A stretch of 13,439 bases of DNA, from positions 1-13,439 of IMG/VR virus record IMGVR_UViG_3300029653_000151; one strand, given 5' to 3'. Numbering within the stretch: position 1 is the first letter of the stretch; every line of letters starts with the position of its first letter. Source of the DNA: a virus (lineage: Duplodnaviria; Heunggongvirae; Uroviricota; Caudoviricetes). The translations under genes were made by a program, and so were the position numbers. Positions 1-12,982 of this stretch are shown here, one piece after another. The notes under the pieces are model-generated. The model was given only the letters and a program-made list of their open reading frames with translations, was not told where the DNA came from and made no database searches.

Positions 1-342
1 ATGATGAAAAAAAGTATTCTGGCGTTTCTGTTACTCACCAGTTCTGCAGCTGCGCTGGCGGCACCGCAGGTGATTACCGTCAGCCGTTTTGAAGTGGGTA
101 AAGACAAATGGGCGTTTAATCGCGAAGAGGTGATGCTGACTTGCCGACCAGGTGATGCTTTGTATGTCATTAACCCAAGTACTCTCGTGCAGTATCCTTT
201 AAACGATATCGCACAAAAGGAAGTTGCCAGTGGGAAGACTAAAGCCCAACCCATTTCGGTGATTCAGATTGATGATCCTAACAATCCCGGCGAAAAAATG
301 AGTCTGGCACCGTTTATAGAGCGAGCTGAAAAACTCTGTTAA
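1..342 (+). CDS. yebY: Small secreted/periplasmic protein, 113 aa, with an N-terminal signal peptide ([22 protein letters not shown]); resembles the DUF2511 protein YebY
   Basis: Complete ORF from ATG at 1 to TAA at 340-342; hydrophobic signal-peptide-like N-terminus with an AxA cleavage motif; followed by a strong hairpin terminator. Name is from recalled similarity to E. coli YebY (113 aa), not a search. Confidence 0.6.
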
Positions 343-372
343 TTACCTAAAATAGCCTTTTGATTTCCAATA

Positions 373-412
373 AAAAACCGCCTCAGTTCTTTCACCAGAA
401 CGGGCGGTTTTT
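373..412. terminator. Bidirectional rho-independent terminator (interrupted stem ccgcc..gttct / agaac..ggcgg, with A-run upstream and T-run downstream)
   Basis: Inverted repeat ccgcctcagttct / agaacgggcgg at about 378-407, flanked by aaaaaa (373-377) and ttttt (408-412), so either strand reads a stem followed by a U-run. Sits 30 bp after the yebY stop. Confidence 0.65.
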
Positions 413-499
413 AACATTTAAGCTGATGACCACCACGCTTTTTATTGACCATTTTGCACGCAAACTGGAAAACCTGGCGTCGTCATCTATTCTTAAAGA

Positions 500-602
500 G
501 CAAGGCAACTAAGCCTGCATTAATGCCAACTTTTAGCGCACGGCTCTCTCCCAAGAGCCATTTCCCTGGACCGAATACAGGAATCGTATTCGGTCTTTTT
601 TT
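500..602 (+). ncRNA. sdsR: SdsR (RyeB)-like small RNA, about 103 nt, ending in an intrinsic terminator
   Basis: Sequence gcaaggcaactaagcctgcattaatgccaactttta...ccaagagcc...ggaccgaatacaggaatcgtattcggtcttttttt matches my recollection of enterobacterial SdsR; a sigma-S-type -10 (ctattct, 486-492) lies 7 nt upstream; a 10-bp perfect hairpin plus T8 run at 569-602 forms the 3' end. No protein-coding signal. Confidence 0.55.
569..602 (+). terminator. Rho-independent terminator (10-bp perfect stem gaccgaatac / gtattcggtc, 7-nt loop, T8 tail)
   Basis: Perfect inverted repeat 569-578 / 586-595 followed by ctttttttt (595-602). Confidence 0.8.
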
Positions 603-733
603 AATTGTATTTAAAATCAATCAGTTGCAAACGTCTTCCCGAAATTCCCCGAAATTTACTCGAATTTCTGTATTCCGGTCTTTTTTGGTTATATCACAAC
701 CAAAATACATTTAACAATCCATTTACGTTAAAA
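603..733. other. Candidate prophage attachment region (attL side), between the sRNA terminator and the integrase stop
   Basis: Integrase 3' end abuts this interval, as attP abuts int in lambda; it holds tandem cgaaatt-type direct repeats (about 640-668) and a partial copy of the SdsR terminator arm (gtattccggtctttttt, 663-679). The exact core cannot be set without the other prophage end. Confidence 0.3.
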
Positions 734-1810
734 TCAGAGTAGTAAGTACGTTTTTTCTCTCTCATCAAGATACATTTTTGTTGTCTTCTCCGATGTGTGG
801 CCAAGTAGACGCTGAGCAAATTCTTCTCCACATGTTTCTTTGTACAATCGTCCAGCCAGACTTCTGATCTCGTGAAAAGTTGGTGGGTTTTCACTGAACT
901 GGATACCTGTTAATTTTCTGGCTGCGACAAATTTTTTTGTCAGGCCATCCGGGTGAATGCTGCCGTCAGGGCTGTTTTTTCTAATCCCGGCACTGATTAG
1001 ATAATCTCCCCGGCTTACCAGGCGGCACTGTTCAACTACTGTACCAAGCCGTAGACCAGCGACAGGAAGGCTGAGTGACAGGGGGATAGCAATCATCATT
1101 CCTGTCTTAATTTGCCTGATGTGGAGACGATCATCATAAATATCACTAAAGCGCATATTCGTTATGTCTTCGCGACGTTGTCCTGTTACAAGGGCTAAAT
1201 CCATAGCTAATGGGAACCATGCCGGAAGTTGATCTGCTGCCTCCCTGATGCAGTTGTATGTCTTTAGTTTCAGTCGTTCTCTTGTAACTACTATTTTCGG
1301 TGCTCTTGTTGGCGTTACTGGATTTTGAGATATACGTCCATCAACAATGGCCTCACGAAACATATCAGACAACACAGAACGCATTGATCCTGCCATTGTG
1401 TTTTTCCCTCCTTCAATCCACAAATCAAGAAACTCGGCAATATGGCGAGTGGTTATTTCTGTCAGTAAAATTTCCCCCAATTTTTCTTTTATTGTCTCCA
1501 GTTGATTTACCCGAATTTTATAAGTATTTCTGGACACTTTTCTCCTTATAAGAATCGTTTTGTAACGTTCAATCCAGTCTGCCATAGTAAATGAGTCGAA
1601 CCCTTTAAGCTTTTCAATTAAGGCAGCAGGAGAGTAGTTTTTGTATATATAATGATTTGCTTCAATTGCCTGCGCTACTGCATCTCTTCTTGAAATTTTA
1701 CCTAGTGTAAATTCTTCTTTCGTCAGAGGGTTGCGCCAGTAATATGCTTTGTCCCTCCTTCGATATGTTAAGTTTTTAGGCAAATTGGGATCGTATTTTT
1801 TCCGCTGCAT
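734..1810 (-). CDS. int: Lambda-family tyrosine integrase (358 aa)
   Basis: Aligns by eye along its length with lambda Int (N-terminal arm-binding region PNLxYRxxxYYxxRxPxTxEEFxLG; C-terminal catalytic region with HxxR and a terminal tyrosine in TTKMYLDE). Start overlaps the excisionase 3' end by 35 nt. Confidence 0.9.
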
Positions 1811-2057
1811 GTTTTAACTTCTCCAGTAACGGACTGTCTCTCCCTTGTCGCCCATTAGGCTGATGGTGTGTTATATCGGTATCAACCTTATTTGGGTTGA
1901 TATAGAAAGCCTCCGGAACCACCCTGTAACTCCTCCCGTGTAGTTCAGGTGCAGGATAAATGTTTCCATTCCTTGCCCATCGTCTCAGCGTTGATATTGA
2001 TGGTGGGTTATCCGGATATCTGAGTTTTCCCCACGTTTTGAGTGTCACAAGATTCAT
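1776..2057 (-). CDS. xis: Excisionase (Xis-like), 93 aa
   Basis: N-terminus MNLVTLKTWGKLRYPDNPPSISTLRRWARNGNIYP resembles lambda Xis; sits directly upstream of and overlapping int. Start set at the second ATG (2057), which has AAGAGG 7 nt upstream; the ATG at 2063 is the alternative. Confidence 0.75.
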   Translation of the reverse strand: MNLVTLKTWGKLRYPDNPPSISTLRRWARNGNIYPAPELHGRSYRVVPEAFYINPNKVDTDITHHQPNGRQGRDSPLLEKLKHAAEKIRSQFA

Positions 2058-2163
2058 TGCCATACCTCTTACGATATGACCGCCAGTAAATATACAGAAT
2101 ACTGGCGGATGTGGTTGATTTTTAATAATCAGCTATGAAGTTCTAATTTGTATATAATGCAAC

Positions 2164-2352
2164 TCACGAGGACAGAAGTTTCTCGCAATTAAAATTTATC
2201 AGCTTTACTTTCTGCTCTCTGGAAACGCCTGCTTCTTTTTTTCCTGAGAGCATTTTTTCGCATTCTGATTTCGTTAATTTAGATTTTGAATATCTTGTCC
2301 AGTTAGTAGGAGTGCCACCTTCCTTTTCAATAGTGGCAGTAATTTTATACAT
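2164..2352 (-). CDS. Small hypothetical protein (62 aa) in the position of Rac ydaC/rcbA
   Basis: ORF with GGAGG 5 nt upstream of the ATG at 2352; occupies the slot between xis and ralR. Identity is by position only; alternative starts at 2364 and 2424. Confidence 0.45.
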   Translation of the reverse strand: MYKITATIEKEGGTPTNWTRYSKSKLTKSECEKMLSGKKEAGVSREQKVKLINFNCEKLLSS

Positions 2353-2539
2353 GAACACCTCCATTATTATTTCCAGTAGTTCGTTTATTCCATCTTTCGA
2401 GTGCTTCTTTTTCACTTCCACCATAGCCAGTTCGGGATTCGCATCCGTTGCATTTTGCCCGGTAATATCCTGAAATTGCTTTCACCGTAACAGATGGACA
2501 ACCACAAAACGGACATGGTTTAACATCGTCATATCTCAT
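2345..2539 (-). CDS. ralR: RalR/Lar restriction-alleviation protein (64 aa), zinc-ribbon (CPFCG..CNGC); reported toxin of the RalR/RalA type I toxin-antitoxin pair
   Basis: MRYDDVKPCPFCGCPSVTVKAISGYYRAKCNGCESRTGYGGSEKEALERWNKRTTGNNNGGVHV matches my recollection of K-12 RalR, including its 64-aa length. In-frame upstream ATGs at 2551 and 2578 are alternatives. Confidence 0.8.
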   Translation of the reverse strand: MRYDDVKPCPFCGCPSVTVKAISGYYRAKCNGCESRTGYGGSEKEALERWNKRTTGNNNGGVHV

Positions 2540-2595
2540 AATTTTTGTCATAAAAACTGTCTCACGTTGGCGGTGCATTACACCGCCAGGCTGAA

Positions 2596-3405
2596 TTATT
2601 CTTCTGAATTATCGATTACACTGTATTCCCCGGTTAATACAGAGGAGTCTGCCGGATCGATTGTCAGTGGTTCCTTTTCATCCATTGATACTGCACGCTG
2701 GATTTCAATTGAGACAGGCAGGTATTTAAACAGGCGACGAATAGCCGTTTTTTTTGCCATTTCTTCCCAGTGAGTTACCCATGGCCCGTTATTACCAGCC
2801 TTACTCTGGCTGCGCACCAGTTCAATCTGTTTGCGCGTCATAACTTCAAACTGAGTCCCTCCGTCTTTCAGTCTTGCGACAGCATAGACGTGGGTCACTG
2901 GTGCATCTTCGTTTTCTCCCGGGCGGTGTATTAACTTTTCATCAAGGCCAAATTCAAAACTAAACTCGTCACCTTCACGGACAACACGGGCTGACAGGCT
3001 GGCGATTTGACCAGAACGGCGAGCCAGATCAATCATGCCGCGATAACCAATGATTAGCTGAACGTTCTTTTTACCGCTCTTTTCGTTTTTATTACCAAAA
3101 GGCAGTAAATATGCGTGGCCGAGGGCGCTACCTGGCTCAAGGCCGAGCTGTGAACACTGAACGATCGCACTGACAAAACTCATGGTGTCACAGTTTCCTA
3201 GCGCCGGAACCTTACGAATTTCTGTGGTGGCGATACGTATCATTCGTTCAGCCGTCATATGGCGTGGGAGAGCTGCTGCCAGTTGCTCTTTCATTGATGG
3301 CTGATTAATAAAGCTGATCACGTCGTTATTTTTTACTGCTGCTGGTGCACGGTTTCCCTGGGTTTTTTGCAGATCGGCTTTTGCGATAGGTGGTTGCTTA
3401 GTCAT
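2596..3405 (-). CDS. recT: RecT single-strand annealing recombinase (269 aa)
   Basis: [36 protein letters not shown]... matches recalled Rac RecT throughout; start chosen at the MTKQ ATG (3405), which overlaps the recE 3' end. Confidence 0.92.
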
Positions 3406-6074
3406 TTGCATACTCCTTAGCCCAGCGGGGCAGTGATAACGTTTTAATAGCTGGCCATTCATCGGTATTCAGGCAGTCAGCCAGGGTCCTCAGATTGCGG
3501 TGATATTCCTGCTGGCCTGCCAGTTTTGCTTCTTCGCCCATCATGAAAATCTCAACCGGGTAACGTCCGCATTCAACAGTTGTGCTGGCAACCAGAAAAA
3601 CGAAAGTTGGCAGCACACCAAACTGTGCTTCATAACCGTCACTGTAGAATGCATCCTGAACGTGATAGCGGTAGTCGTAATAAGCCGTTTTGAATCGTTG
3701 AATATCCGCTGTGGTTTTCACGTCCATGATCCAGTGAAATTCAGGGATAATTTTGTCCGGACGGCACCGACACAAAATTCCTGTTTCAGGATCTTCCCAG
3801 TAAATTGATGATTCAGCGTGTCCGGCGCTTTCAACAAGCCATTGACCCAGCGGCAAAGCCATAACGCTCTGATACATGAGTTCAATTTTCCGGCCTTCTT
3901 CGGCAGTGATAACCGTTTTTCCTGTGCTTGCGCATTCCATCAGAAACGCTTTCTCCTCTTCTTTTCCGGCGGTTGTACGGCGGTTAAATTCAGGTGCCAC
4001 GATAAAGCGGTTACTGAATTCTTCCGGTTCAAGTACACGGCAGTGGAAAGCGGTTCCTAAATCGAGCGTTTTTGTCTTTGTGGTGTCCACTGGGGGCATT
4101 TTTACGCCACAAATACAGAGCCGGAGTATCAGCAATGTCGTCGAGCTGAGACTTACTGACACCGGGACCCGCGTGGTAATTCTCATTCGAAATTCCGTAA
4201 TAAATACCAGGCTCTATGTCTCCTGCGATTACGGGATCTGCGACTTCGCCAGTTTCATCACTGCAATCGCGATGCGGATCGCTGCCAGCATTCTCATTGT
4301 GCGGATGTTCAGGGCCTTCCATTTCCTCCGGATCTTTTTCCTGAGATTCATCCAGATTTTCTTCATTAAAGGTTTCCTGATATGTGGTGTCGCCCATCAC
4401 CGCGCCACAATCAGGGCAGTTGCCGCCACCGCTCTGACCGCGGGCGGCACAGACTTTTTCCGGTTCCTGTTGCGCTACTGGTTCAGATTGTTTCGTTTCT
4501 GGCTCATTTTTCTGTGCATTTTGGCTGTTTTGTTCCGCTTTCTGGTTGTTTTGTTCCGATTTGGGCTGGTTCTGGTTCACAGAATCTCGGGTTTCAATTC
4601 CCTTAACCCATTTCGGATCATTCGGGTCGCTAATCCCTTCAACAAATTCTCCGCGAGAGGCAGCCAGTAATTTGTCTGCATCGACAGGATTTTTGGGCGG
4701 AATGTTTTTCCGGGCTTCATAGAGTTCTGCCCGCAGTTTCTGATATTTCGCATCAACAGAATTTACCTGTGACTGAGCATCCAGCGGCTGCGTGTCCTGA
4801 TGATGTTCAGTTGCATCCGGTTCCACTGTTTCAGCCGTTGCCTGTTCATCTGCCATTGCGCAAGATGGTTGCAGTTTTTCTTCATCATCCTGTTTTTCTT
4901 CTTCTGTTACACGCTGCGGCATCGGGGCAGAGGAACGACCGCAGGCAATATCCACGATTTCTGGATCAGGGTTGGCATGATCAGTTTCAGTCAGTACTTT
5001 GTTAAGATATTCAGTGACGTGTGCGGGGATAACCTCGATCCCAATTGGTGCTTCTTTTACGGACGCAACCACGATGGCGCGGGAATAATCCAGCCCGCCA
5101 GGCATGGTGATGAATTTGTCGCGGAAAACAGAAAAGGGCGGTTTATTTTCAGCGATAATTTCCTCGACACGTTTAGCGTGTGCCGGATGAAGGTTATAAA
5201 TGTCCACGTCCATTGAACGAGCCAGTACGCCAGTGGCTACGTCGCGCGCCAGTGACGTCAGATCGTGAATGAAACCTTCGCCGCGATCGGTGAGGTTCCC
5301 GCCGCCAGCATTAGCGCCGGAAGCCGTGCGCGTGATGCGTGAAACACGATTTCCTTTCATCCACTCTTTTGTCAGCAGACCGCGATCGGTGTAGTCTGCG
5401 TCCAGGTATGCTTCGAAAAAAGCAGTCATCAGCCCCAGGCTTGAATTGCCTGGATTAGGGAAAACTCTGTCAGTATCACGCACCAGTTTGTGGAGATCGC
5501 GAATTTCCAGCGGGTCGAGCAGGCTGGTTTTGTGGGAAACAGCCAGGGCAGTAACGGCTGGTAGTTCTTCAGCTCGTGCAATGTGTAATGCCTGTAGTTC
5601 GTTGCGTGAAACGTGCGTTACCGGTTTTTCGCTGCCGTGTTGAGCAAGCCAGCGAATGGGCAGCTCCTGACCGGAAATCGGGAGTAGCATATTCTCCTCA
5701 ATCTCCGTCATGTCTTCGCCATTAACATTGGTATTGTCAGTGCTGGCTGGCTTGTCCTGCGCAGAGGATGAGGGCGCGATAAATACCATTGTGATGCCAT
5801 CTTCCCCGCCTTTTTCGTAACGGTTGCAGAATTCCGTATCAAATACGCCTTCTGGTGGAAGGTCATCAACAACGGGCAAATTGACGCGAACAGGTTTTTT
5901 AAAGTCATCTTCATCGTAGCCAGCATCGTCAATCGCAACAGCACCACGGGAGATGGCAATGGATAATTTTTTCGCTTCAGCCCAGTAGAAACCGCCTTTA
6001 ATACCGAGACGTTTTCTTACTTTGTCATTTTTTGCTTCGTAATACAGTGGGTAAACTTGTTTATCGGTGCTCAT
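3398..6074 (-). pseudogene. recE: recE (exonuclease VIII) split by a frameshift into a 681-aa N-terminal ORF (4029-6074) and a C-terminal nuclease-domain ORF (3398-4186)
   Basis: Two minus-strand ORFs in different frames overlap by 158 bp and together read as one RecE. The upstream frame reaches ...[10 protein letters not shown] then runs into nonsense and a stop; the downstream frame continues [19 protein letters not shown]... through the PD-(D/E)xK motif (RPDK...IMDVKT) to ...WAKEYAND. The switch sits at a G5 run (plus 4092-4096). Confidence 0.75.
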
Positions 6075-6143
6075 TGCTTTTTAACCTCAACTCAGATTAA
6101 AATTAATGCGAGTGATGAATAAATGTCCCAGGTTCTTCACTCA

Positions 6144-6174
6144 GGCCTGCACAGTGTGCAGGCTTTCTTTTTTT
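6144..6174 (+). terminator. Plus-strand-oriented intrinsic terminator-like hairpin (gcctgcac agt gtgcaggc, then tttcttttttt)
   Basis: 8-bp perfect stem 6145-6152 / 6156-6163 followed by an 11-nt T-rich run on the plus strand only; no plus-strand gene lies upstream. Confidence 0.5.
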
Positions 6175-6180
6175 CAGATT

Positions 6181-6450
6181 TCACCTTTTAATTTCATTGC
6201 AATCAGAGTTGCCAGAAATTCGGCTTTTTTTTTCTGCGGGCAGATTCTTTCCTATGTGCACCAGACACATTTTTTTAACACCATCGTTAAGTGTTTTAAC
6301 GTTGCCTGATGGACCGTCGATATCAACCACAGTGAATGGGGTTTCTTTATTTTCTGTCTTAATCACGTAGCCAATACGCTTTCCTTCCAGGGTAACTTCG
6401 TGAACAATGTCATCAGTAGTAACAACAGTGGCTTCATAACTGGTAATCAT
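6181..6450 (-). CDS. racC: RacC-like protein (89 aa)
   Basis: MITSYEATVVTTDDIVHEVTLEGKRIGYVIKTENKETPFTVVDIDGPSGNVKTLNDGVKKMCLVHIGKNLPAEKK... matches recalled Rac RacC; AAGGAG 6 nt upstream of the ATG at 6450. Confidence 0.75.
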   Translation of the reverse strand: MITSYEATVVTTDDIVHEVTLEGKRIGYVIKTENKETPFTVVDIDGPSGNVKTLNDGVKKMCLVHIGKNLPAEKKSRISGNSDCNEIKR

Positions 6451-6524
6451 GTTTTTCTCCTTAATTAAGGTTGAGCGAATCCCTGCCATTGCTGGCATAA
6501 ATTCAGTTTCGGATAGTCAGTTAA

Positions 6525-6695
6525 TTAAAGTTCGTGTGCCATCTGGTCTTTTTCGGCACAGATTTCACTACAATATTTTTTCATTTCCGTCGTTGGTATA
6601 ACTCCACGCATGAAATGAAGTGGTCTTGTAATGATTTTGCTTTCTTCAATTTCTTTATTGCAAAGGTGATAAGCACATTTTATTTTCTTAGTCAT
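6525..6695 (-). CDS. ydaE: YdaE-like small cysteine-rich protein (56 aa), below the size cut-off of the supplied ORF track
   Basis: Hand-translated minus strand: [56 protein letters not shown], stop TAA at 6525-6527. Its ATG overlaps the kilR stop (TAATG), indicating translational coupling. Confidence 0.7.
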   Translation of the reverse strand: MTKKIKCAYHLCNKEIEESKIITRPLHFMRGVIPTTEMKKYCSEICAEKDQMAHEL

Positions 6696-6916
6696 TACCA
6701 TGACTCCGCCTTTACAGGTAAACCATCACGACCGAGGAAGACTTTAATCATGCAGTCAGAAATGCATGTTTTTGTAGTCAGGCTACGAATATAAAGTTTT
6801 CGCTTTTTAATATTGTTTGCCGAGGCGATATATGTCCGACCTTCATGAAGAACATAATCGCCAGGGGTCACACACTGACGTGGTATTTCATCAGTTCCGA
6901 AGTGATGAGCAATCAT
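6695..6916 (-). CDS. kilR: KilR cell-division inhibitor (73 aa)
   Basis: [73 protein letters not shown] matches recalled Rac KilR; GGAG 6 nt upstream of the ATG at 6916. Confidence 0.8.
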
Positions 6917-7324
6917 AATTATCTCCATTTTTACAAATGAATTTTGTCGATGCGGTGCCTGGTGCCTCCAGGTGACGTTAACCAGTTAACAATTAACGCC
7001 GGATAATCCACCCATAACACTGATGCTTTTAACTGTGCCGCGTGCGCTTAGCCGCATTCACTGCATCACAAAATTCACTTTAAAAAGGGGCGGCAGGGCA
7101 GCCACGGAGTAGAACTGATGCCGCCAAAGACTACACATAGCAATGTCGTTATTTACAACCGGAGGCGCACTCCCACCATTTAAATTTAACAGACAAGAAC
7201 GACTCTTTATGGATATCGGAAATGCGCCTTCGTGTTGTGCCCGGTTTTATTTCACCACCTCCGGGCTTTGGTGGTTTCTGCTATACCCCTACAGCGAGAA
7301 TATTGAATTAATCCAAATAATGGA

Positions 7325-7477
7325 TTAGCAAGTATTTCTGGCAAGCCAGCGACGTGCGCCAGCTTCGGTTTTAAACGTTTTGCTTTTGGTATACGTCATG
7401 GCGGTGAATGTGCCGTCCTGATTGGGAAACACGCCACATACCAGAGATTCGTTGTTGCCAAGATCGATAGTATCCAT
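7325..7477 (-). CDS. Small Rac-type protein (50 aa), YdaG/YdaF-like
   Basis: MDTIDLGNNESLVCGVFPNQDGTFTAMTYTKSKTFKTEAGARRWLARNTC; GAGG 5 nt upstream of the ATG at 7477; first ORF downstream of the PL-like promoter. I cannot say from memory whether it is ydaF or ydaG. Confidence 0.5.
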   Translation of the reverse strand: MDTIDLGNNESLVCGVFPNQDGTFTAMTYTKSKTFKTEAGARRWLARNTC

Positions 7478-7659
7478 GTTGACCTCATTTCCCCTTAACG
7501 CCGGGTGGCGGAACGTTTTATCTACTGCGCTTTGTATCAATCAACAACTGCCGTCATGTTCGTATGCCTCAGGCTGGCTACTTAGCCCTGTTCAGTGGCT
7601 GGATAACTCGAGGTATTGTCCTGCCGTTCTCTGGTGGGGCGTTGTTTGGATATGCTTAT

Positions 7660-7710
7660 TAAACACAATACGTTTTCTTGTGTCAACACGGAATGTGTTT
7701 TGTGGTGGGT
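7660..7710 (-). promoter_or_regulatory. PL-like leftward early promoter with overlapping operator-like palindromes
   Basis: On the minus strand: -35 TTGACA (plus 7691-7696), 17-nt spacer, -10 TTTAAT (plus 7668-7673). Overlapped by inverted repeats acacaa-N9-ttgtgt (7673-7696) and aacac-N5-gtgtt (7695-7709) that resemble the palindrome between racR and ydaS. Confidence 0.5.
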
Positions 7711-7736
7711 GTCATATGATGATGGTACAAAAAAGC

Positions 7737-7759
7737 CCGCTGATAGCGGGCTGATTGGC
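7737..7759 (-). terminator. Rho-independent terminator downstream of racR
   Basis: Minus strand reads GCCCGC-tatca-GCGGGC followed by TTTTTT (plus: aaaaaa 7737-7742, gcccgc 7743-7748, tgata, gcgggc 7754-7759), 24 bp after the racR stop. Confidence 0.75.
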
Positions 7760-7782
7760 ATATTACTGTGATAGCAAGATCA

Positions 7783-8202
7783 TTACTCCGGTGGGGGATT
7801 ATCTTTAAGCCTGCCTCTCAAATATTTTTCTACATACTCATCGATTTCTTTTAGCCGGACTTCAAATAGCTCAATCATTCGTTGTTGTTCTGAGCCCGGT
7901 AGCTGGTTAAACAACTCAAGAAGTTTTCGTTGGGATTCATTTAACCACAATTCAGAAGATTCCTGTTCTCCAAAGAGGAGCTCAGGAGGAGATATGCCAA
8001 GTGCCTTTCCCAATATGACAGCGTCATGCACTCCAACATTTCTGCTGCCCGCCTCATAGTTACCTATACGCGATTGCGTCCATCCGCAGATTTCAGCAAG
8101 TTTTCCTTGAGATAAACCAAGCTTCTGCCTGCGCTCTTTAAGACGCATTGCAATTTTGTCATTGAGCCTACTAGCGGCAATTTTTTCGTTTTCTTTTTCC
8201 AT
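7783..8202 (-). CDS. racR: RacR-like XRE/cI-family prophage repressor (139 aa)
   Basis: N-terminal helix-turn-helix (LSQGKLAEICGWTQSRIGNYEAG); divergent from the cro-like ydaS across an operator-bearing intergenic region. Shorter than the 158 aa I recall for K-12 RacR, so allelic identity is uncertain. Confidence 0.7.
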   Translation of the reverse strand: MEKENEKIAASRLNDKIAMRLKERRQKLGLSQGKLAEICGWTQSRIGNYEAGSRNVGVHDAVILGKALGISPPELLFGEQESSELWLNESQRKLLELFNQLPGSEQQRMIELFEVRLKEIDEYVEKYLRGRLKDNPPPE

Positions 8203-8298
8203 TGCATCCTTGTATCACGAATCGTGATTTACATAAAACACAAAATAGCTTGACCATATAACACAAGGTGTGTTTAAAATTGTCATCGGAGGTTTTCA
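8203..8298. promoter_or_regulatory. Divergent promoter/operator region between racR and ydaS
   Basis: Perfect 15-bp palindrome atcacga-a-tcgtgat (8214-8228); second palindrome aacaca-agg-tgtgtt (8260-8274); -35-like TTGACC (8250-8255) and AT-rich -10-like taaaat (8275-8280); GGAGG 6 nt before the ydaS ATG. Confidence 0.6.
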
Positions 8299-8541
8299 AT
8301 GAACAAAATTTCAACATATCGAAAACAGCTTGGGCTGTCTCAAAGACAACTTGCTGTTCAGTTAGGGTGGATACAAAGCCGACTGGCAAATTACGAAGCA
8401 AATTTTCGTACCCCTGGACTAGAGGAGTGCAGAAAAATTGTTTCTACCCTTAATCGGCTTGGCGCTCATTGTGGACTTGACGATGTATTCCCCCCAGACG
8501 GTAAGCATAGCGAAAACAGCATAGGAGCGGTTGATTCATGA
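8299..8541 (+). CDS. ydaS: Cro-like helix-turn-helix protein (80 aa), YdaS-like
   Basis: HTH segment LGLSQRQLAVQLGWIQSRLANYEA; divergent from the repressor; stop overlaps the ydaT start (ATGA). Confidence 0.7.
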   Translation: MNKISTYRKQLGLSQRQLAVQLGWIQSRLANYEANFRTPGLEECRKIVSTLNRLGAHCGLDDVFPPDGKHSENSIGAVDS

Positions 8542-8963
8542 AAATCAGGCATAAGCACATCGAATCAGTGTTGTTAGCCCTGGCAGCCGAAAAAGGGCAG
8601 GCGTGGGTCGCTAACGCAATTACTGAAGAATATCTGCGCCAGGGGGGGGGCGGCGAATTGCCCCTTATACCAGGCAAGGACTGGAACAATCAGCAGAATA
8701 TCTATCACCGTTGGTTGAAAGGTGAAACGAAAGCGCAAAGGGAAAAAATTCAGAAACTGATCCCTGCGGTTCTGGCAATTCTTCCGCGCGAGCTGCGTCA
8801 CCGACTCTGCATCTTCGATACCCTGGAACGCCGTGCATTACTGGCGGCGCAGGAAGCGTTGAGTACGGCAATTGATGCGCATGATGATGCAGTCCAGGCC
8901 GTTTACCGGAAAGCACATTTCAGCGGTGGTGGGTCGCCCGGCGATTCTGTCGTAGTGCATTGA
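8538..8963 (+). CDS. ydaT: YdaT-like protein (141 aa)
   Basis: Position directly after ydaS with ATGA overlap; length matches the roughly 140 aa I recall for K-12 YdaT. Contains a G9 homopolymer (8642-8650) encoding Gly-Gly-Gly-Gly. Confidence 0.65.
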   Translation: MKIRHKHIESVLLALAAEKGQAWVANAITEEYLRQGGGGELPLIPGKDWNNQQNIYHRWLKGETKAQREKIQKLIPAVLAILPRELRHRLCIFDTLERRALLAAQEALSTAIDAHDDAVQAVYRKAHFSGGGSPGDSVVVH

Positions 8964-9007
8964 TTGAAATTAATCGTGCCGGATTGTTTTGTTCGGTATC
9001 AGTTAAA

Positions 9008-9426
9008 TGTAACGACGCGAGCGTTACAAGGTGAAAACAAATGGCTTCAAACTGGATAAAGCTCGAGGTTATTACGCCGGATAAGCCGGAAATATTCAGG
9101 CTTGCTGAGATTCTGAATATTGATCCAGATGCCGCATTAGGGAAGGTTATTCGCTTCTGGGCATGGGCGGATCAACAAATGATAGACGGTAATGCAGATT
9201 GTAACGCTCGCGGCGTTACAAAAAGTGCAATAGATCGCATCACTTTTATGGCTGGTTTTGCTGATGCGTTAATTCAGGTTGGATGGCTGGTCGAAAATGA
9301 CGTTGGGCTTTCTCTACCTAACTTTGAACGTCATAACGGAAAAAGCTCAAAAAAACGGGCGGTTACAAACGAGCGAGTTACAAAAATACGCGAACTGAAA
9401 CGAAAGGGTAACGCTGCCAGCGTTAC
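9008..9426. repeat. Cluster of gtaacg-N7-cgttac palindromes and gttaca half-sites: candidate origin iterons or regulator binding sites
   Basis: tgtaacg-acgcgag-cgttaca (9008-9028, upstream of the ydaU ATG); ttgtaacg-ctcgcgg-cgttacaa (9199-9221); direct half-sites gttacaaacgagcgagttaca (9362-9382); gtaacg-ctgccag-cgttac (9408-9426). Sites 1 and 2 are the same 21-mer in opposite orientation with one mismatch. Confidence 0.5.
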
Positions 9427-9829
9427 ACAAACGGATCAAAAAGCGTTACCAGAGGAAGAGGAAGAGGAAGATATAAATACTGATCTCCCCCTAAATCCCC
9501 CTCGCCAAAAACGAGCGTCTAAAAAATTCGAGCCGGAGGCTATCGAGCTGCCTGACTGGTTGCCGGAAACACTCTGGCATGAGTGGGTTCAGTTCAGGCA
9601 GGCATTGCGAAAACCGATTCGAACGGAGCAGGGCGCTAACGGGGCGATACGGGAACTGGAAAAATTCCGTCAGCAGGGTTTTACACCTGAGCAGGTGATT
9701 CGACACAGCATCGCCAATGAATACCAGGGCTTGTTCGCACCGAAAGGTGTTCGGCCTGAGACGTTGCTCCGACAGGTTAACACCGTCTCGTTGCCGGACA
9801 GTGCGATCCCGCCAGGCTTCAGGGGGTAA
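9041..9829 (+). CDS. ydaU: Phage replication initiation protein, lambda O-like / YdaU-like (262 aa)
   Basis: Sits directly upstream of a DnaC-like loader as in O-P type modules; carries internal palindromic repeats and an acidic EEEEEED stretch. Confidence 0.65.
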   Translation: MASNWIKLEVITPDKPEIFRLAEILNIDPDAALGKVIRFWAWADQQMIDGNADCNARGVTKSAIDRITFMAGFADALIQVGWLVENDVGLSLPNFERHNGKSSKKRAVTNERVTKIRELKRKGNAASVTQTDQKALPEEEEEEDINTDLPLNPPRQKRASKKFEPEAIELPDWLPETLWHEWVQFRQALRKPIRTEQGANGAIRELEKFRQQGFTPEQVIRHSIANEYQGLFAPKGVRPETLLRQVNTVSLPDSAIPPGFRG

Positions 9830-9835
9830 CAGACC

Positions 9836-10582
9836 ATGAAAAATATTGCGACAGGCGGCGTTCTGGAGCGTATCCGCAGACTGACCCCACCACATGTAAC
9901 CGCCCCATTCAGAACGGTTGCGGAGTGGCGTGAGTGGCAACTTGCTGAAGGCCAGAAACGTTGCGAGGAGATCAACCGCCTGAATCGTCAGTTGCGGGTG
10001 GAAAAAATTCTGAATCGCTCTGGCATCCAGCCGTTGCACCGTAAATGCTCGTTTGCGAATTACCAGGTGCAGAACGACGGCCAGCGATACGCGTTAAGTC
10101 AGGCGAAATCCATCACCGATGAACTGATGACCGGGTGTACAAATTTTGCGTTCAGCGGAAAACCTGGTACCGGGAAGAATCACTTAGCGGCAGCTATCGG
10201 GAATCGCCTGCTGAAAGACGGTCAGACAGTGATTGTGGTTACCGTGGCTGATGTTATGAGCGCCCTGCACGCCAGCTATGACGACGGGCAGTCAGGCGAA
10301 AAATTTTTGCGGGAGCTGTGCGAAGTGGATCTGCTGGTTCTTGATGAAATTGGCATTCAGCGCGAGACAAAAAACGAGCAGGTGGTGCTGCACCAGATTG
10401 TTGATCGCCGGACAGCGTCGATGCGCAGCGTGGGGATGCTGACAAACCTGAACTATGAGGCCATGAAAACATTGCTCGGCGAGAGGATTATGGATCGCAT
10501 GACCATGAACGGCGGGCGATGGGTGAATTTTAACTGGGAGAGCTGGCGTCCGAATGTCGTCCAGCCAGGAATTGCGAAGTGA
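9836..10582 (+). CDS. ydaV: DnaC/IstB-like AAA+ helicase loader (248 aa), YdaV-like
   Basis: Walker [16 protein letters not shown] and Walker B LLVLDEIG; 248 aa matches the length I recall for K-12 YdaV. Confidence 0.85.
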
Positions 10583-10604
10583 TTTTTACCTGGAGGAAAT
10601 TTTA

Positions 10605-11366
10605 ATGGAGACTGTTTTTGACGCACTGAAAGCAATGGGAAAAGCCACGTCGGTAGAACTGGCTGCGCGACTTGATATCAGTCGTGAAGAGGTACTGAAC
10701 GAGCTGTGGGAACTGAAAAAGGCTGGTTTCGTTGATAAAAGCGTATACACCTGGCGTGTGGCTGATAACAACGTTCAGCAGGAACAGCCAGCGCCAGAAG
10801 AACAGCCGGAAGAAACCACCACGGCGACAGTAGCGAAAATCTCAGAGTGCGATTTAACCGCAACGATTGAACAACGCGGACCACAAACGGCGGATGAACT
10901 GGCTACGTTTTTCGGCATCACATCACGCAAAGTGGCTTCAACGCTGGCAATGGCAATCAGCAAAGGGCGTCTGATTCGCGTGAATCAGGGCGGTAAATTT
11001 CGTTACTGCATACCGGGTGCTGATTTACCGGCAGAGCCGGAAGCTGCATCCGTAGCGGAAACCGATGGTAAAGCCTTTCCTCAGCCAGCAGGTGTTGCGT
11101 TACCAGTACAGGAAATGATGGCACAGGAAGAAATGAAAACAGAAATCGTGGAAGACATTGTGAGGTTACAGCCATCGATCACCGAAATGAAAGCAGATGA
11201 CCTGATTCTACCATCGCTGCATGTGGCTAACCGCGAGCTGCGCCGGGCGAAAAGTGATGTCCAGAAGTGGGAGCGAGTCTGTGCTGCGCTGCGGGAGCTG
11301 AACAAGCACCGGGATATTGTTCGACAGATTACTGATTCTTCCCGCCGTGTTGTATCGGAAAAGTGA
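10605..11366 (+). CDS. Hypothetical phage protein (253 aa) with two winged-helix-like segments, an acidic linker and a C-terminal coiled-coil-like tail
   Basis: GGAGG 7 nt upstream of the ATG at 10605; segments [30 protein letters not shown] and [32 protein letters not shown] look like winged-helix DNA-binding units. Possibly the intact counterpart of ydaW; not verified. Confidence 0.55.
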
Positions 11367-11381
11367 TTGCCGGAGGCGCTT

Positions 11382-11774
11382 ATGGCAAAAGTATTTACAC
11401 CAGAAGAGCGGGAAGAAGTGAAGGCGCGCATTGTGGAATTCGTGCGCCTGAGCGGACGAGAAACTTTTCGACAACTGGCAGATAAAACGGGTGTCAGTAA
11501 GACCGCTATTCGTCGTTTATCTGGTGCGCTTGCGGCCAGTGGTGATGTCTGGCTCTCTGGTTGCGGGGTATTTCCATCAGAGCAGGCGTATCGCGTATGG
11601 CGTAAGACACCGGAGAAGGCTGCTGACCCGACACTGATTCGAAAGTTACCTGACGGAGAAATACGTCGTTACAACAGACGGCAGAACATAATTTGTCGTG
11701 AGTGCCGCCAGAGCGAAGTTATGCAGCGTGTGCTGGCGTTCTATCGGGGAAACTTTCAGGAGGTGATGGAGTGA
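11382..11774 (+). CDS. Hypothetical phage protein (130 aa) with a possible HTH and a CxxC pair
   Basis: GGAGG 5 nt upstream of the ATG at 11382; stop overlaps the next gene's GTG start. Confidence 0.55.
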   Translation: MAKVFTPEEREEVKARIVEFVRLSGRETFRQLADKTGVSKTAIRRLSGALAASGDVWLSGCGVFPSEQAYRVWRKTPEKAADPTLIRKLPDGEIRRYNRRQNIICRECRQSEVMQRVLAFYRGNFQEVME

Positions 11775-12067
11775 GGGTCAGAGTTTATATTGCCGGTCCA
11801 ATGACGGGATATGAAAATTTCAACCGTGAGGCGTTTCACAAGGCGGAAGAGGAACTGAAACGGGAAGGGCATACCGTCTTAAACCCGGCAGTACTTCCGG
11901 ACGGGCTGACACAGCCGCACTACATGGATATTTGCATGGCAATGATTCGTTGTGTGGATGCGATTTACATGCTGAATGGCTGGCAGCGGTCAGCGGGCGC
12001 TAAGGCAGAGCTGGCACTGGCGGAGAAACTGGGGCATGCAGTGATTTATCAGGAGGTGGCTCAATGA
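11771..12067 (+). CDS. DUF4406-like protein (nucleoside 2-deoxyribosyltransferase-like fold), about 98 aa
   Basis: Motif VYIAGPMTGYENFNREAFHKAEEELKREGHTVLNPAVL is typical of the DUF4406 / deoxyribosyltransferase-like family as I recall it. GTG start at 11771 with GGAGG 7 nt upstream; the ATG at 11801 is the alternative. Stop overlaps the next start (ATGA). Confidence 0.55.
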   Translation: MRVRVYIAGPMTGYENFNREAFHKAEEELKREGHTVLNPAVLPDGLTQPHYMDICMAMIRCVDAIYMLNGWQRSAGAKAELALAEKLGHAVIYQEVAQ

Positions 12068-12525
12068 GAGAGGTTAACTATGAGGCGCTTCGTGAGGCAG
12101 CACAAAACTATCAGTCGACGCTGGCGTGGTATCAGGCTATCCCGGACAGCCCAAATGCTGAACGGGATTGTGATGCGGCTCTTGCTGCGTTTAAGCGTCA
12201 CATCCGTCATCGGGAAGCGGATATTATCGCTGATTTGCTGGATGGACTGGAAGAAGCAAAATCACAACTCAAAGAGCAGCGTGAGTATTACGAAGGCGTT
12301 ATCTCTGATGGGAGCAAGCGTATTGCTGAACTGGAAGCGCGGGAAGTTCAATTACCGACTCGCTACGACCTTCGATATGGACACCCGATAAATGCAGATG
12401 AGCGACATGTCATGATACCTAAAGAAAATGGCAGTTGGCTTTACCTGATTGACCTAGAACACGCATTACGCGTCTCTGGCATTCGCATCAAAGGAGAGGA
12501 GCATGGAAATAAAACCAGAGGATGA
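12064..12525 (+). CDS. Hypothetical phage protein (153 aa) with a central coiled-coil-like region
   Basis: ORF translationally coupled to its upstream neighbour (ATGA); no recognisable motif. Confidence 0.5.
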   Translation: MREVNYEALREAAQNYQSTLAWYQAIPDSPNAERDCDAALAAFKRHIRHREADIIADLLDGLEEAKSQLKEQREYYEGVISDGSKRIAELEAREVQLPTRYDLRYGHPINADERHVMIPKENGSWLYLIDLEHALRVSGIRIKGEEHGNKTRG

Positions 12526-12859
12526 GTTAAGCAATATCGTTTTATTTCCGGTAAAAGAGGATGACCCTCGTAATCAGGTTAATTTTCTTTATGAGCCATC
12601 GGAAAGACCATATTGTCATCACGCCTCTGTCCGGGTTGACGAAAAAGAGCGTCAGGTCCGCTGTAAAATCTGCGGTGCAGTTGTGGAGCCATTTGACTGG
12701 ATGCTCTCTGTGGCGAAAAGAGAAACCAGACTGGCAGATGATGTAAGGCACTTGCGCCAGGAGGAGCGGGAAAGGCGAAAAAATATAGAAAAGCTAATTC
12801 AGATTGAGCGTAACGCGAAAGCGCGGATACGCAGGGCGACAAAATCCAGAACTGAATAA
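12503..12859 (+). CDS. Hypothetical phage protein (118 aa) with a zinc-ribbon-like C..HH..CxxC segment and a basic coiled-coil tail
   Basis: GGAGAGGAG directly upstream of the ATG at 12503; CHHASVRVDEKERQVRCKICG motif; overlaps the 3' end of the preceding ORF. Confidence 0.5.
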   Translation: MEIKPEDELSNIVLFPVKEDDPRNQVNFLYEPSERPYCHHASVRVDEKERQVRCKICGAVVEPFDWMLSVAKRETRLADDVRHLRQEERERRKNIEKLIQIERNAKARIRRATKSRTE

Positions 12860-12982
12860 TTAAATTTAGCTCTGTTAAAAATTTAATCCTTAACCGGAGG
12901 GATTTCTGCACCCTCAGAACATCAGGAGGCCGTCCGAAAGGGCGGTAGTGAAATGCGAAAATTCAAAATAATTATTGAAACG

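Follow-up and report, generated by a model that had tools for sequence, protein, structure and literature searches.

SdsR (RyeB) is among the most abundant RpoS-dependent small RNAs and regulates porins, tolC and mutS; together with RyeA it has been described as a toxin/antitoxin pair of RNAs. The last 23 bp of ryeB serve as an attachment site for horizontally acquired DNA and as that of the Salmonella phage PhiW104 (Balbontin et al. 2008, J Bacteriol 190:4075, as cited in PMC7380047). A passage of PMC7380047 places the PhiW104 site inside ryeA and states that lysogeny modifies the 5′ part of that gene; passages there and in PMC10969437 describe a lowered transcription of ryeA and a raised transcription of ryeB in the lysogen. 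ryeB is named among the known phage targets listed by Bobay et al., and 'RyeB' is used as a target label in an island-naming scheme. Most transcription of pphA in K-12 starts at the sdsR promoter and reads through into the gene; transcription of sdsR is itself subject to interference from the ryeA promoter (PMC6610125). A related strategy is that of P4, P22 and Sf6, which integrate into the 3′ ends of tRNA or tmRNA genes (Williams 2002, as cited in PMC3603311). A literature search found no description of the E. coli sdsR site or of the attP of the phage family considered here, and the locus is unmentioned in Nakamura 2021.

An earlier note on the stretch of DNA analyzed here (the window, 13,439 nucleotides) had placed a prophage at the SdsR/RyeA locus next to yebY. 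The analysis confirmed this observation and supported its interpretation. The window opens with yebY (1-342, plus strand), a conserved host flank gene identified by Pfam (DUF2511, E = 1.5e-44) and annotated by RefSeq in strain CEA601S and in K-12. It is followed at 373-412 by a hairpin with a perfect 10-bp inverted repeat (373-382 / 403-412), which is bidirectional: it serves as the yebY terminator and as the 3′ end of a K-12-type RyeA (at about 370), and in alignment to K-12 the RyeA annotation stops at this hairpin. The stop codons of yebY (342) and of the integrase gene (734) enclose 391 bp, in which the earlier note saw no credible protein gene. The same conclusion was reached here. Four small ORFs in this gap (45-89 aa, all with TTG starts) gave no Pfam match even at E ≤ 1, and RefSeq annotates no CDS in the gap of the near-identical genome CEA601S. 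The small ORFs at 360-742 were rejected as genes, Pfam matches and RefSeq CDS being absent.

On the far side of the gap, int (734-1810, minus strand) encodes a lambda-family tyrosine integrase with an N-terminal arm-binding domain. Pfam detected Phage_integrase (PF00589, E = 1e-16), Phage_int_M (PF22022) and Arm-DNA-bind_1 (PF09003, E = 2e-6); comparison with lambda Int structures gave E = 5e-72, and all six catalytic residues are conserved, R212, K235, H313, R316, H338 and Y347 aligning with R212, K235, H308, R311, H333 and Y342 of lambda Int. The start of int is overlapped by xis (1776-2063, minus strand; PF07825, E = 6.5e-14), annotated 'excisionase' by RefSeq in CEA601S. The genome of CEA601S is 99.95% identical to window positions 1-12,982, with one mismatch per 12.2 kb in the prophage and four per 342 bp in yebY, and its prophage of about 46 kb extends from int beside yebY to tail-fibre genes beside pphA. 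The 3′ end of SdsR is 131 nt away from the integrase stop, in line with the proximity noted earlier, and the distance is about 135 nt in both species-representative loci found. Matches listed in an Int search of species-representative genome contigs were to E. coli and Shigella loci only. A second Int type, 53% identical and with the same core, occurs in IMG/VR and is absent from E. coli.

Rfam covariance models, run at the curated gathering threshold, matched both small RNAs. A complete sdsR gene is located at 499-602 on the plus strand: RF00111 (SdsR_RyeB) matched 503-602 (+) over model positions 1-100 of 100 with 118.1 bits (cut-off 38; E = 4.8e-23), and the alignment with K-12 sdsR covers 499/500-602, in agreement with the SdsR-like sequence recognized earlier at about 500-602. 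The sigma-S-type -10 element reported upstream of it was found together with further features of that type. Features of sdsR known to confer sigma-S selectivity are C at -13, G or T at -14, C at -8, an A/T discriminator and a 16-bp spacer (Fröhlich et al., PMC3333887). Counted from G500 as +1, the promoter read from the sequence (466-496, plus strand) has T486 at -14, C487 at -13, the -10 element TATTCT at 488-493 with C at -8, the discriminator TAA at 494-496 and the -35 element TGGAAA at 466-471, separated by a 16-bp spacer. It thus appears to agree with this description in every feature as well as in its location downstream of yebY.

The hairpin terminator with a perfect 10-bp stem, also seen earlier, is the Rho-independent terminator of SdsR (568-602, plus strand). 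It consists of the stem 569-578 / 586-595, the 7-nt loop AGGAATC at 579-585 and the U-tract at 596-602; the stem can be extended to 11 pairs (568-596), followed by TTTTTTT, and it folds with -15.8 kcal/mol (z -4.0). Two bases of the lysogen terminator differ from the K-12 type: a G·U pair has become A-U, and UCUCUUUUU has become UCUUUUUUU, which lengthens the U-run. We considered whether the A-U pair in the phage-derived half of the terminator makes the hairpin more stable, and rejected this, as ViennaRNA gave -15.8 kcal/mol for both versions. With identical hairpin energies in host and lysogen, the U-tract is the sole difference and a claim of a stronger terminator is without computed support.

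The point at which host and phage homology part was located by megablast of window positions 1-1000. All 5,426 complete E. coli genomes matched 1-603, and 228 of them extended into int. This places the break at the last base of the SdsR terminator and not in yebY or in int, the two positions that would have contradicted the earlier reading. An empty site of the K-12 type, in which the pphA-ryeA/sdsR-yebY interval is contiguous, is present in 5,188 of the 5,426 genomes (95.6%), and about 238 sites are occupied or disrupted. Another event observed at this site is an IS4-like insertion inside sdsR. The segment 604-733 occurs in exactly 228 of the 5,426 genomes; a query spanning the far junction (attR) was likewise fully covered in exactly 228, and elsewhere its match started at the first base of the core described below. 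The description of the locus as an insertion hot spot agrees with published work (PMC7380047), but in E. coli the site does not appear to be one for diverse DNA, since 228 of the approximately 238 non-empty sites carry one integrase/attP family.

The earlier note also proposed that the att core overlaps or abuts the sRNA genes. Alignments and breakpoints identified a 32-bp core common to attB, attP, attL and attR, CGAA[T/A]ACAGGAATCGT[G/A]TTCGGTCT[C/T]TTTTTA, which in the window (attL) occupies 572-603 and therefore comprises the final 31 nt of sdsR and one further base. The matching repeat expected at the far end of the prophage was found in CEA601S (locus L002, 3148-3179), where it adjoins pphA at a distance of about 46 kb. 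The four sites were compared using K-12 for attB, the window for attL, CEA601S for attR, and a phage record and an IMG/VR contig for attP; attR was taken from CEA601S and M11, as the far junction of the window's own genome falls outside the window. In the phage record (pPE4, PP818812.1) and the contig (L007) attP is intact, with P arm, core and P′ arm (604-733 in the window) continuous. The Int proteins of these two are 97.5% and 98% identical to that of the window, respectively, and the Xis of L007 is 99% identical. The existence of such attP-bearing sequences, and a prophage in CEA601S that is nearly identical although its neighbouring yebY has diverged, are indirect evidence that the element may excise and integrate.

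Three positions distinguish attP from attB, and they allowed the exchange to be traced. At 576, 588 and 597, K-12 attB has T, G and C, and attP of pPE4 and L007 has A, A and T. The attL sites of the window, CEA601S, M11, L011 and L012 have T, A and T, and the attR sites of CEA601S and M11 have A, G and C. The mismatches thus segregate reciprocally in two independent lysogens, CEA601S and M11, the latter being counted as independent because its P arm is just 92% identical. The pattern suggests that strands were exchanged between 576 and 588, within ACAGGAATCGT (577-587), that is, in the terminator loop AGGAATC and two bases on either side; this interval is deduced from polymorphisms and geometry, not from cleavage mapping. 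A decayed copy (L005) has G at the position equivalent to 588 in attL, which implies that variants of attP or attB exist and blurs the deduction to that extent. The arms of the terminator stem, 10-bp inverted repeats around a 7-bp spacer, are probably the core-type Int sites flanking the overlap. Excision from the lysogen is predicted to yield the attP junction CGAAAACAGGAATCGTATTC... and an attB restored to T, G and C.

The P′ arm has the elements expected next to such a core. The IHF consensus AATCAATCAGTTG, a candidate H′-like site at 615-627 (plus strand) between core and arm repeats, is the sole exact match to WATCAANNNNTTR in the 13.4-kb window and is kept in pPE4 and in the divergent L008 arm; IHF probably binds there. 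A search of the P arm for IHF sites returned one-mismatch matches only, at chance frequency. Three tandem 10-bp repeats, CCCGAAATTC, CCCGAAATTT and ACTCGAATTT, follow at 638-667 (plus strand) as candidate arm-type Int sites P′1-P′3. Three of the five matches to CYCGAAWTT in the window fall within 638-667, against 0.85 expected in the whole window, and related copies are also present in the P arm. Together with the arm-binding domain of Int, the order of these elements resembles C′, H′ and P′1-P′3 of lambda. The bases contacted by Int, IHF and Xis are predictions. Further along, a block at 658-704 is conserved between two otherwise divergent P′ arms; it folds weakly (z about -2) and contains a partial second copy of the right half of the core, GTATTCCGGTCTTTTTT, at 669-686 and an 8-bp inverted repeat at 681-688 / 697-704. 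We considered the copy at 669-686 as a relic of an earlier host integration. Free-phage attP also has this copy, and the divergent arm conserves it; it is thus phage-borne, and the idea was rejected.

The consequences for RyeA follow from the position of the core. RF00101 (SraC_RyeA) matched 606-462 on the minus strand with 180 bits (cut-off 37; E = 3e-42), showing that the RyeA partner is indeed present at the locus, and a RyeA/SraC-homologous body antisense to sdsR extends over 370-603 on the minus strand. The earlier suggestion that this partner may be altered proved correct. The start of K-12 ryeA (272 nt) lies 37 nt past the core toward pphA, which leaves the sigma-70 promoter and the 5′ end of the gene at attR: the promoter and the first 37 nt align to the far junction by pphA and not to window positions 604-733, a displacement of about 46 kb. 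Judged from this alignment, the ryeA of the window is a 5′-replaced gene and not an intact one of the K-12 type, with the region complementary to SdsR and the RyeA terminator intact at attL. At attR the native promoter faces the P arm of the phage, toward a strong hairpin with a U-run behind it (-19.3 kcal/mol, z -5.1), which the terminator scan missed due to its long loop and which folding recovered.

Overall, we consider it about 90% probable that a lambda-like prophage of Rac type uses its Int/Xis to recombine attP with the 3′ end of sdsR, leaving 572-603 as the attL core. The sequences of the four att sites, the breakpoints, the reciprocal distribution of the mismatches, the catalytic residues of Int and the frequency in the population are direct results. 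The attB is the SdsR Rho-independent terminator itself, and the exchange maps to the loop region at 577-587. The attP brings its own copy of the terminator, so that integration rebuilds a full-length sdsR in which the distal half of the stem and the U-tract have become phage DNA; the phage-derived part amounts to the 3′-terminal 15-26 nt or so. The ryeA gene is split by the same event. Its body remains opposite sdsR, preceded by the P′ arm and the 3′ end of int, and its sigma-70 promoter and first 37 nt are left by pphA about 46 kb away, aimed into the P arm.

A competing reading of the junction assigns 604-733 to the host, as a variant of the 5′ region of ryeA, and moves the edge of the prophage nearer to the integrase stop. 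It can draw on the consensus start of Rfam SraC_RyeA, AAUUAAAAAAAGACCG, which fits the window junction (606-591) better than it fits K-12. However, 604-733 is joined to the P arm in both the phage record and the IMG/VR contig, it is present in exactly the 228 int-bearing genomes and in none of the 5,188 with an empty site, and the far-end repeat is the 32-bp core and not a site at 733. By these three observations the host-variant reading is refuted, and we leave it virtually no chance. With the integration into the sdsR terminator accepted, the question becomes what is transcribed against SdsR in the lysogen. The expression of RyeA has probably been lost or re-wired, and the sdsR-promoter read-through that drives pphA in K-12 has probably been lost; both statements lean on analogy and geometry, which make such regulatory consequences plausible. 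From the int stop to the core, the minus strand showed no terminator-like site. There are therefore two candidate sources of antisense RNA over sdsR, int transcripts that read through and a promoter-like site in the P′ arm. The latter site, a putative sigma-70-like match of 9/12 found by consensus scan (604-631, minus strand), has the -35 TTTGCA at 631-626, a 16-nt spacer and the -10 TACAAT at 609-604, and would start a shortened RyeA-like RNA near 597. The scan gave two such matches in the 600-bp region against 0.9 expected.

Two outcomes were weighed on this basis. We give roughly even credence to an effective loss of RyeA at attL, with antisense RNA arising only by read-through from int or the early-left genes, SdsR de-repressed, and pphA deprived of its main promoter. 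This agrees with the native RyeA promoter and first 37 nt being at attR, with the absence of a terminator-like site between the int stop and the core, with the dependence of pphA on sdsR read-through and the interference of the ryeA promoter with sdsR in K-12 (PMC6610125), and with the changes described for PhiW104 lysogeny in a passage of PMC7380047 (ryeA lowered, ryeB raised). Those Salmonella changes speak against the other outcome, in which the P′ arm supplies a replacement promoter and a shortened, chimeric RyeA (about 230 nt, with its start near 597) keeps the control of SdsR roughly as it was. We regard this as possible but rather doubtful. The match adjoins the core and faces into it, a -10-like hexamer is kept at this site in pPE4 and L007 and is a perfect TATAAT in the L008 arm, and the SdsR-complementary region of RyeA and its terminator are intact. 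Nevertheless, the match is weak, it overlaps the IHF consensus, and its -35 element varies (TTTGTA in L011). An effective loss of RyeA has difficulties of its own: a stable lysogen usually makes little Int, and read-through may then be negligible; the P′-arm promoter may act at attL; and the native RyeA promoter at attR would yield an RNA complementary to the last 26 nt or so of SdsR, ending at the P-arm hairpin. A more speculative idea, which we think improbable, is that the phage senses its own integration state through the host pair SdsR/RyeA. In the free phage, transcripts leaving int would cross attP and stop at the P-arm terminator, and in the prophage they would gain a 3′ extension of about 230 nt perfectly antisense to SdsR, so that sigma-S-induced SdsR and RNase III could destroy int/xis mRNA in stationary phase. 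If true, lambda sib retroregulation would have an analogue here that is driven by a host sRNA; on prophage induction the cell would fill with RNA against SdsR, and late-operon read-through across attR could turn on pphA, a homologue of the lambda phosphatase.

Integration into the sdsR terminator has practical consequences for work on this sRNA pair. This prophage family occupies the site in about 4% of complete E. coli genomes, among them non-O157 EHEC serogroups, e.g. O103, O111 and O45. By the layout of the locus, the sdsR-pphA and ryeA-sdsR couplings are physically broken in the lysogen. Three elements known from K-12 can thereby no longer work in the described way: the native ryeA promoter that faces sdsR, the transcriptional interference between the two promoters, and the sdsR-promoter read-through into pphA. 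Studies of SdsR/RyeA in such strains should allow for a prophage-altered locus. As the same principle had been reported in 2008 for Salmonella, the finding, although correct, is an ordinary one, an E. coli case of a known kind and not conceptually new; it is a clean case of an sRNA terminator hairpin used as an integrase target in the fashion of a tRNA stem-loop. What is added here are the exact core, the exchange interval, the lambda-like layout of attP and the population figures.

Compared by description, PhiW104 is the closest known parallel in its choice of target. Its attachment site also lies in the last 23 bp or so of ryeB, internal to ryeA and downstream of yebY, and its integration likewise preserves ryeB at the cost of the 5′ part of ryeA, which is replaced; the exchange interval at 577-587 overlaps the start of the corresponding last 23 bp of sdsR (580-602). 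Here, in contrast, a Rac-like lambdoid with recET, ralR/RalA and kilR resides in E. coli. The ryeA/ryeB hot spot as described receives many kinds of DNA, whereas the occupied E. coli sites nearly all carry one integrase family. With Rac of K-12, which is located at ttcA with a different integrase, the prophage shares the early-left set of xis, DUF1187, ralR with the RalA sRNA, recT, recE, ydaE and kilR; unlike Rac, it has a full late gene set in CEA601S.

The recombination machinery is closest in design to that of lambda and HK022. Here too Int (358 aa) combines an arm-binding, a core-binding and a catalytic domain with all catalytic residues, and its gene is overlapped by xis. In attP, an IHF consensus separates the core from three tandem arm repeats on the side of int, the opposite arm also has repeats, and the inverted core sites, here predicted from the sequence, are separated by a 7-bp spacer. 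The Int proteins of 434 and HK022 are only about 39-41% identical to that of the window (HK022 about 41%). The core sequence and the arm-repeat motif (CCCGAAATT) also differ, and attB is an sRNA terminator and not the gal-bio intergenic region. In the use of its target the phage behaves like the tRNA/tmRNA 3′-end integrators P4, P22 and Sf6: attB is the symmetric stem-loop of a conserved single-copy RNA gene, and attP holds the 3′ part of that gene, so that the gene is regenerated on integration. The difference lies in the target, a regulatory sRNA that depends on Hfq and is overlapped by an antisense gene; regenerating sdsR therefore necessarily truncates ryeA.

Comparison of the window with the closely related E. 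coli strain CEA601S revealed that most mismatches between them lie in the host flank. Four of the five mismatches fall within yebY (1-342; positions 8, 150, 154 and 183), and the 12.2 kb of prophage contain a single mismatch and two indels. Because the prophage is nearly identical while the yebY flank has diverged, the sequences suggest recent spread or recombination. The match to CEA601S ends at 12,982, which suggests a mosaic junction near this point. In the recE region (3398-6074, minus strand) an additional G is present at 4096 relative to CEA601S, so that recE is read as two ORFs (3398-4186 and 4029-6074); the additional G is either a frameshift or a sequencing error. At 11568 a G present in CEA601S is absent from the window, at the same place as a gene that RefSeq flags as frameshifted in that strain.

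The P′ arm (604-733) was found at 233 places in 228 of the 5,426 complete E. coli genomes. It occurs twice in five of them, for example in NZ_CP074853.1, and this doubling may reflect tandem or secondary lysogens in a few strains. In the one two-copy case examined, a second P′ arm was not found in the 40-kb region around one copy. At the far end of the prophage, the P arm beside pphA in CEA601S (locus L002) contains a strong hairpin at 3442-3477 (-19.3 kcal/mol, z -5.1). A U-run is present only on the side serving the int/RyeA direction, and none follows the hairpin in the late-gene direction, toward pphA; because of this, late transcripts might cross attR into pphA. In strain CFSAN027350, a prophage belonging to the int/attP family of the window has tccP2, which encodes a type III effector, close to the far end (NZ_CP037941.1 region L011, 39209-40102); prophages occupying the sdsR site can thus bring virulence cargo.

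Decaying copies of the same element were identified in Shigella flexneri CP182556.1 (L004) and E. coli CP178302.1 (L005), at 2501-3850 of each locus. Matches to Int fall in two frames in both, indicating a frameshift, and an IS3-type ALIL pseudoknot is located upstream in both. SdsR of the Shigella copy scored only 81 bits; attL of the E. coli copy has G at the position equivalent to 588, and its T-run is altered. In E. coli strain 2017-03-3CC (NZ_AP027783.1) the match to the window ends at 515 and an IS4-like element, ISVsa5, lies inside sdsR (about 3516-4900 of locus L010). Insertion of ISVsa5 into sdsR is another route by which the sRNA pair is disrupted.

Phage record PP818812.1 bears the label 'Actinobacillus phage vB_Apl-pPE4', which names Actinobacillus pleuropneumoniae as the host. 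The Int that it encodes shares 97.5% identity with that of the E. coli prophage in the window, and the attP core of the record is the 3′ end of E. coli sdsR; the assignment to an Actinobacillus host looks doubtful. Two IMG/VR contigs, L008 (9600-10500) and L009, carry a variant attP with the P arm and core unchanged and a divergent P′ arm, which retains an IHF consensus and a block with a partial copy of the core. The integrase of this variant has only 53% identity, over the C-terminal half, and the variant attP was not found among the E. coli genomes. This combination suggests that modules were exchanged at the att core.

Covariance-model matches were also obtained inside the prophage. A DicF-like sRNA (7088-7139, minus strand; Rfam RF00039, 60.9 bits against a cut-off of 48) is located in the early region, close to kilR. 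The antitoxin sRNA RalA (2168-2346, plus strand) lies opposite the ralR toxin gene (2345-2539, minus strand) and is full-length, with a score of 222.7 bits against a cut-off of 170 (Rfam RF02694). RalA and ralR constitute a Rac-type type I toxin-antitoxin pair, situated close within the prophage edge.
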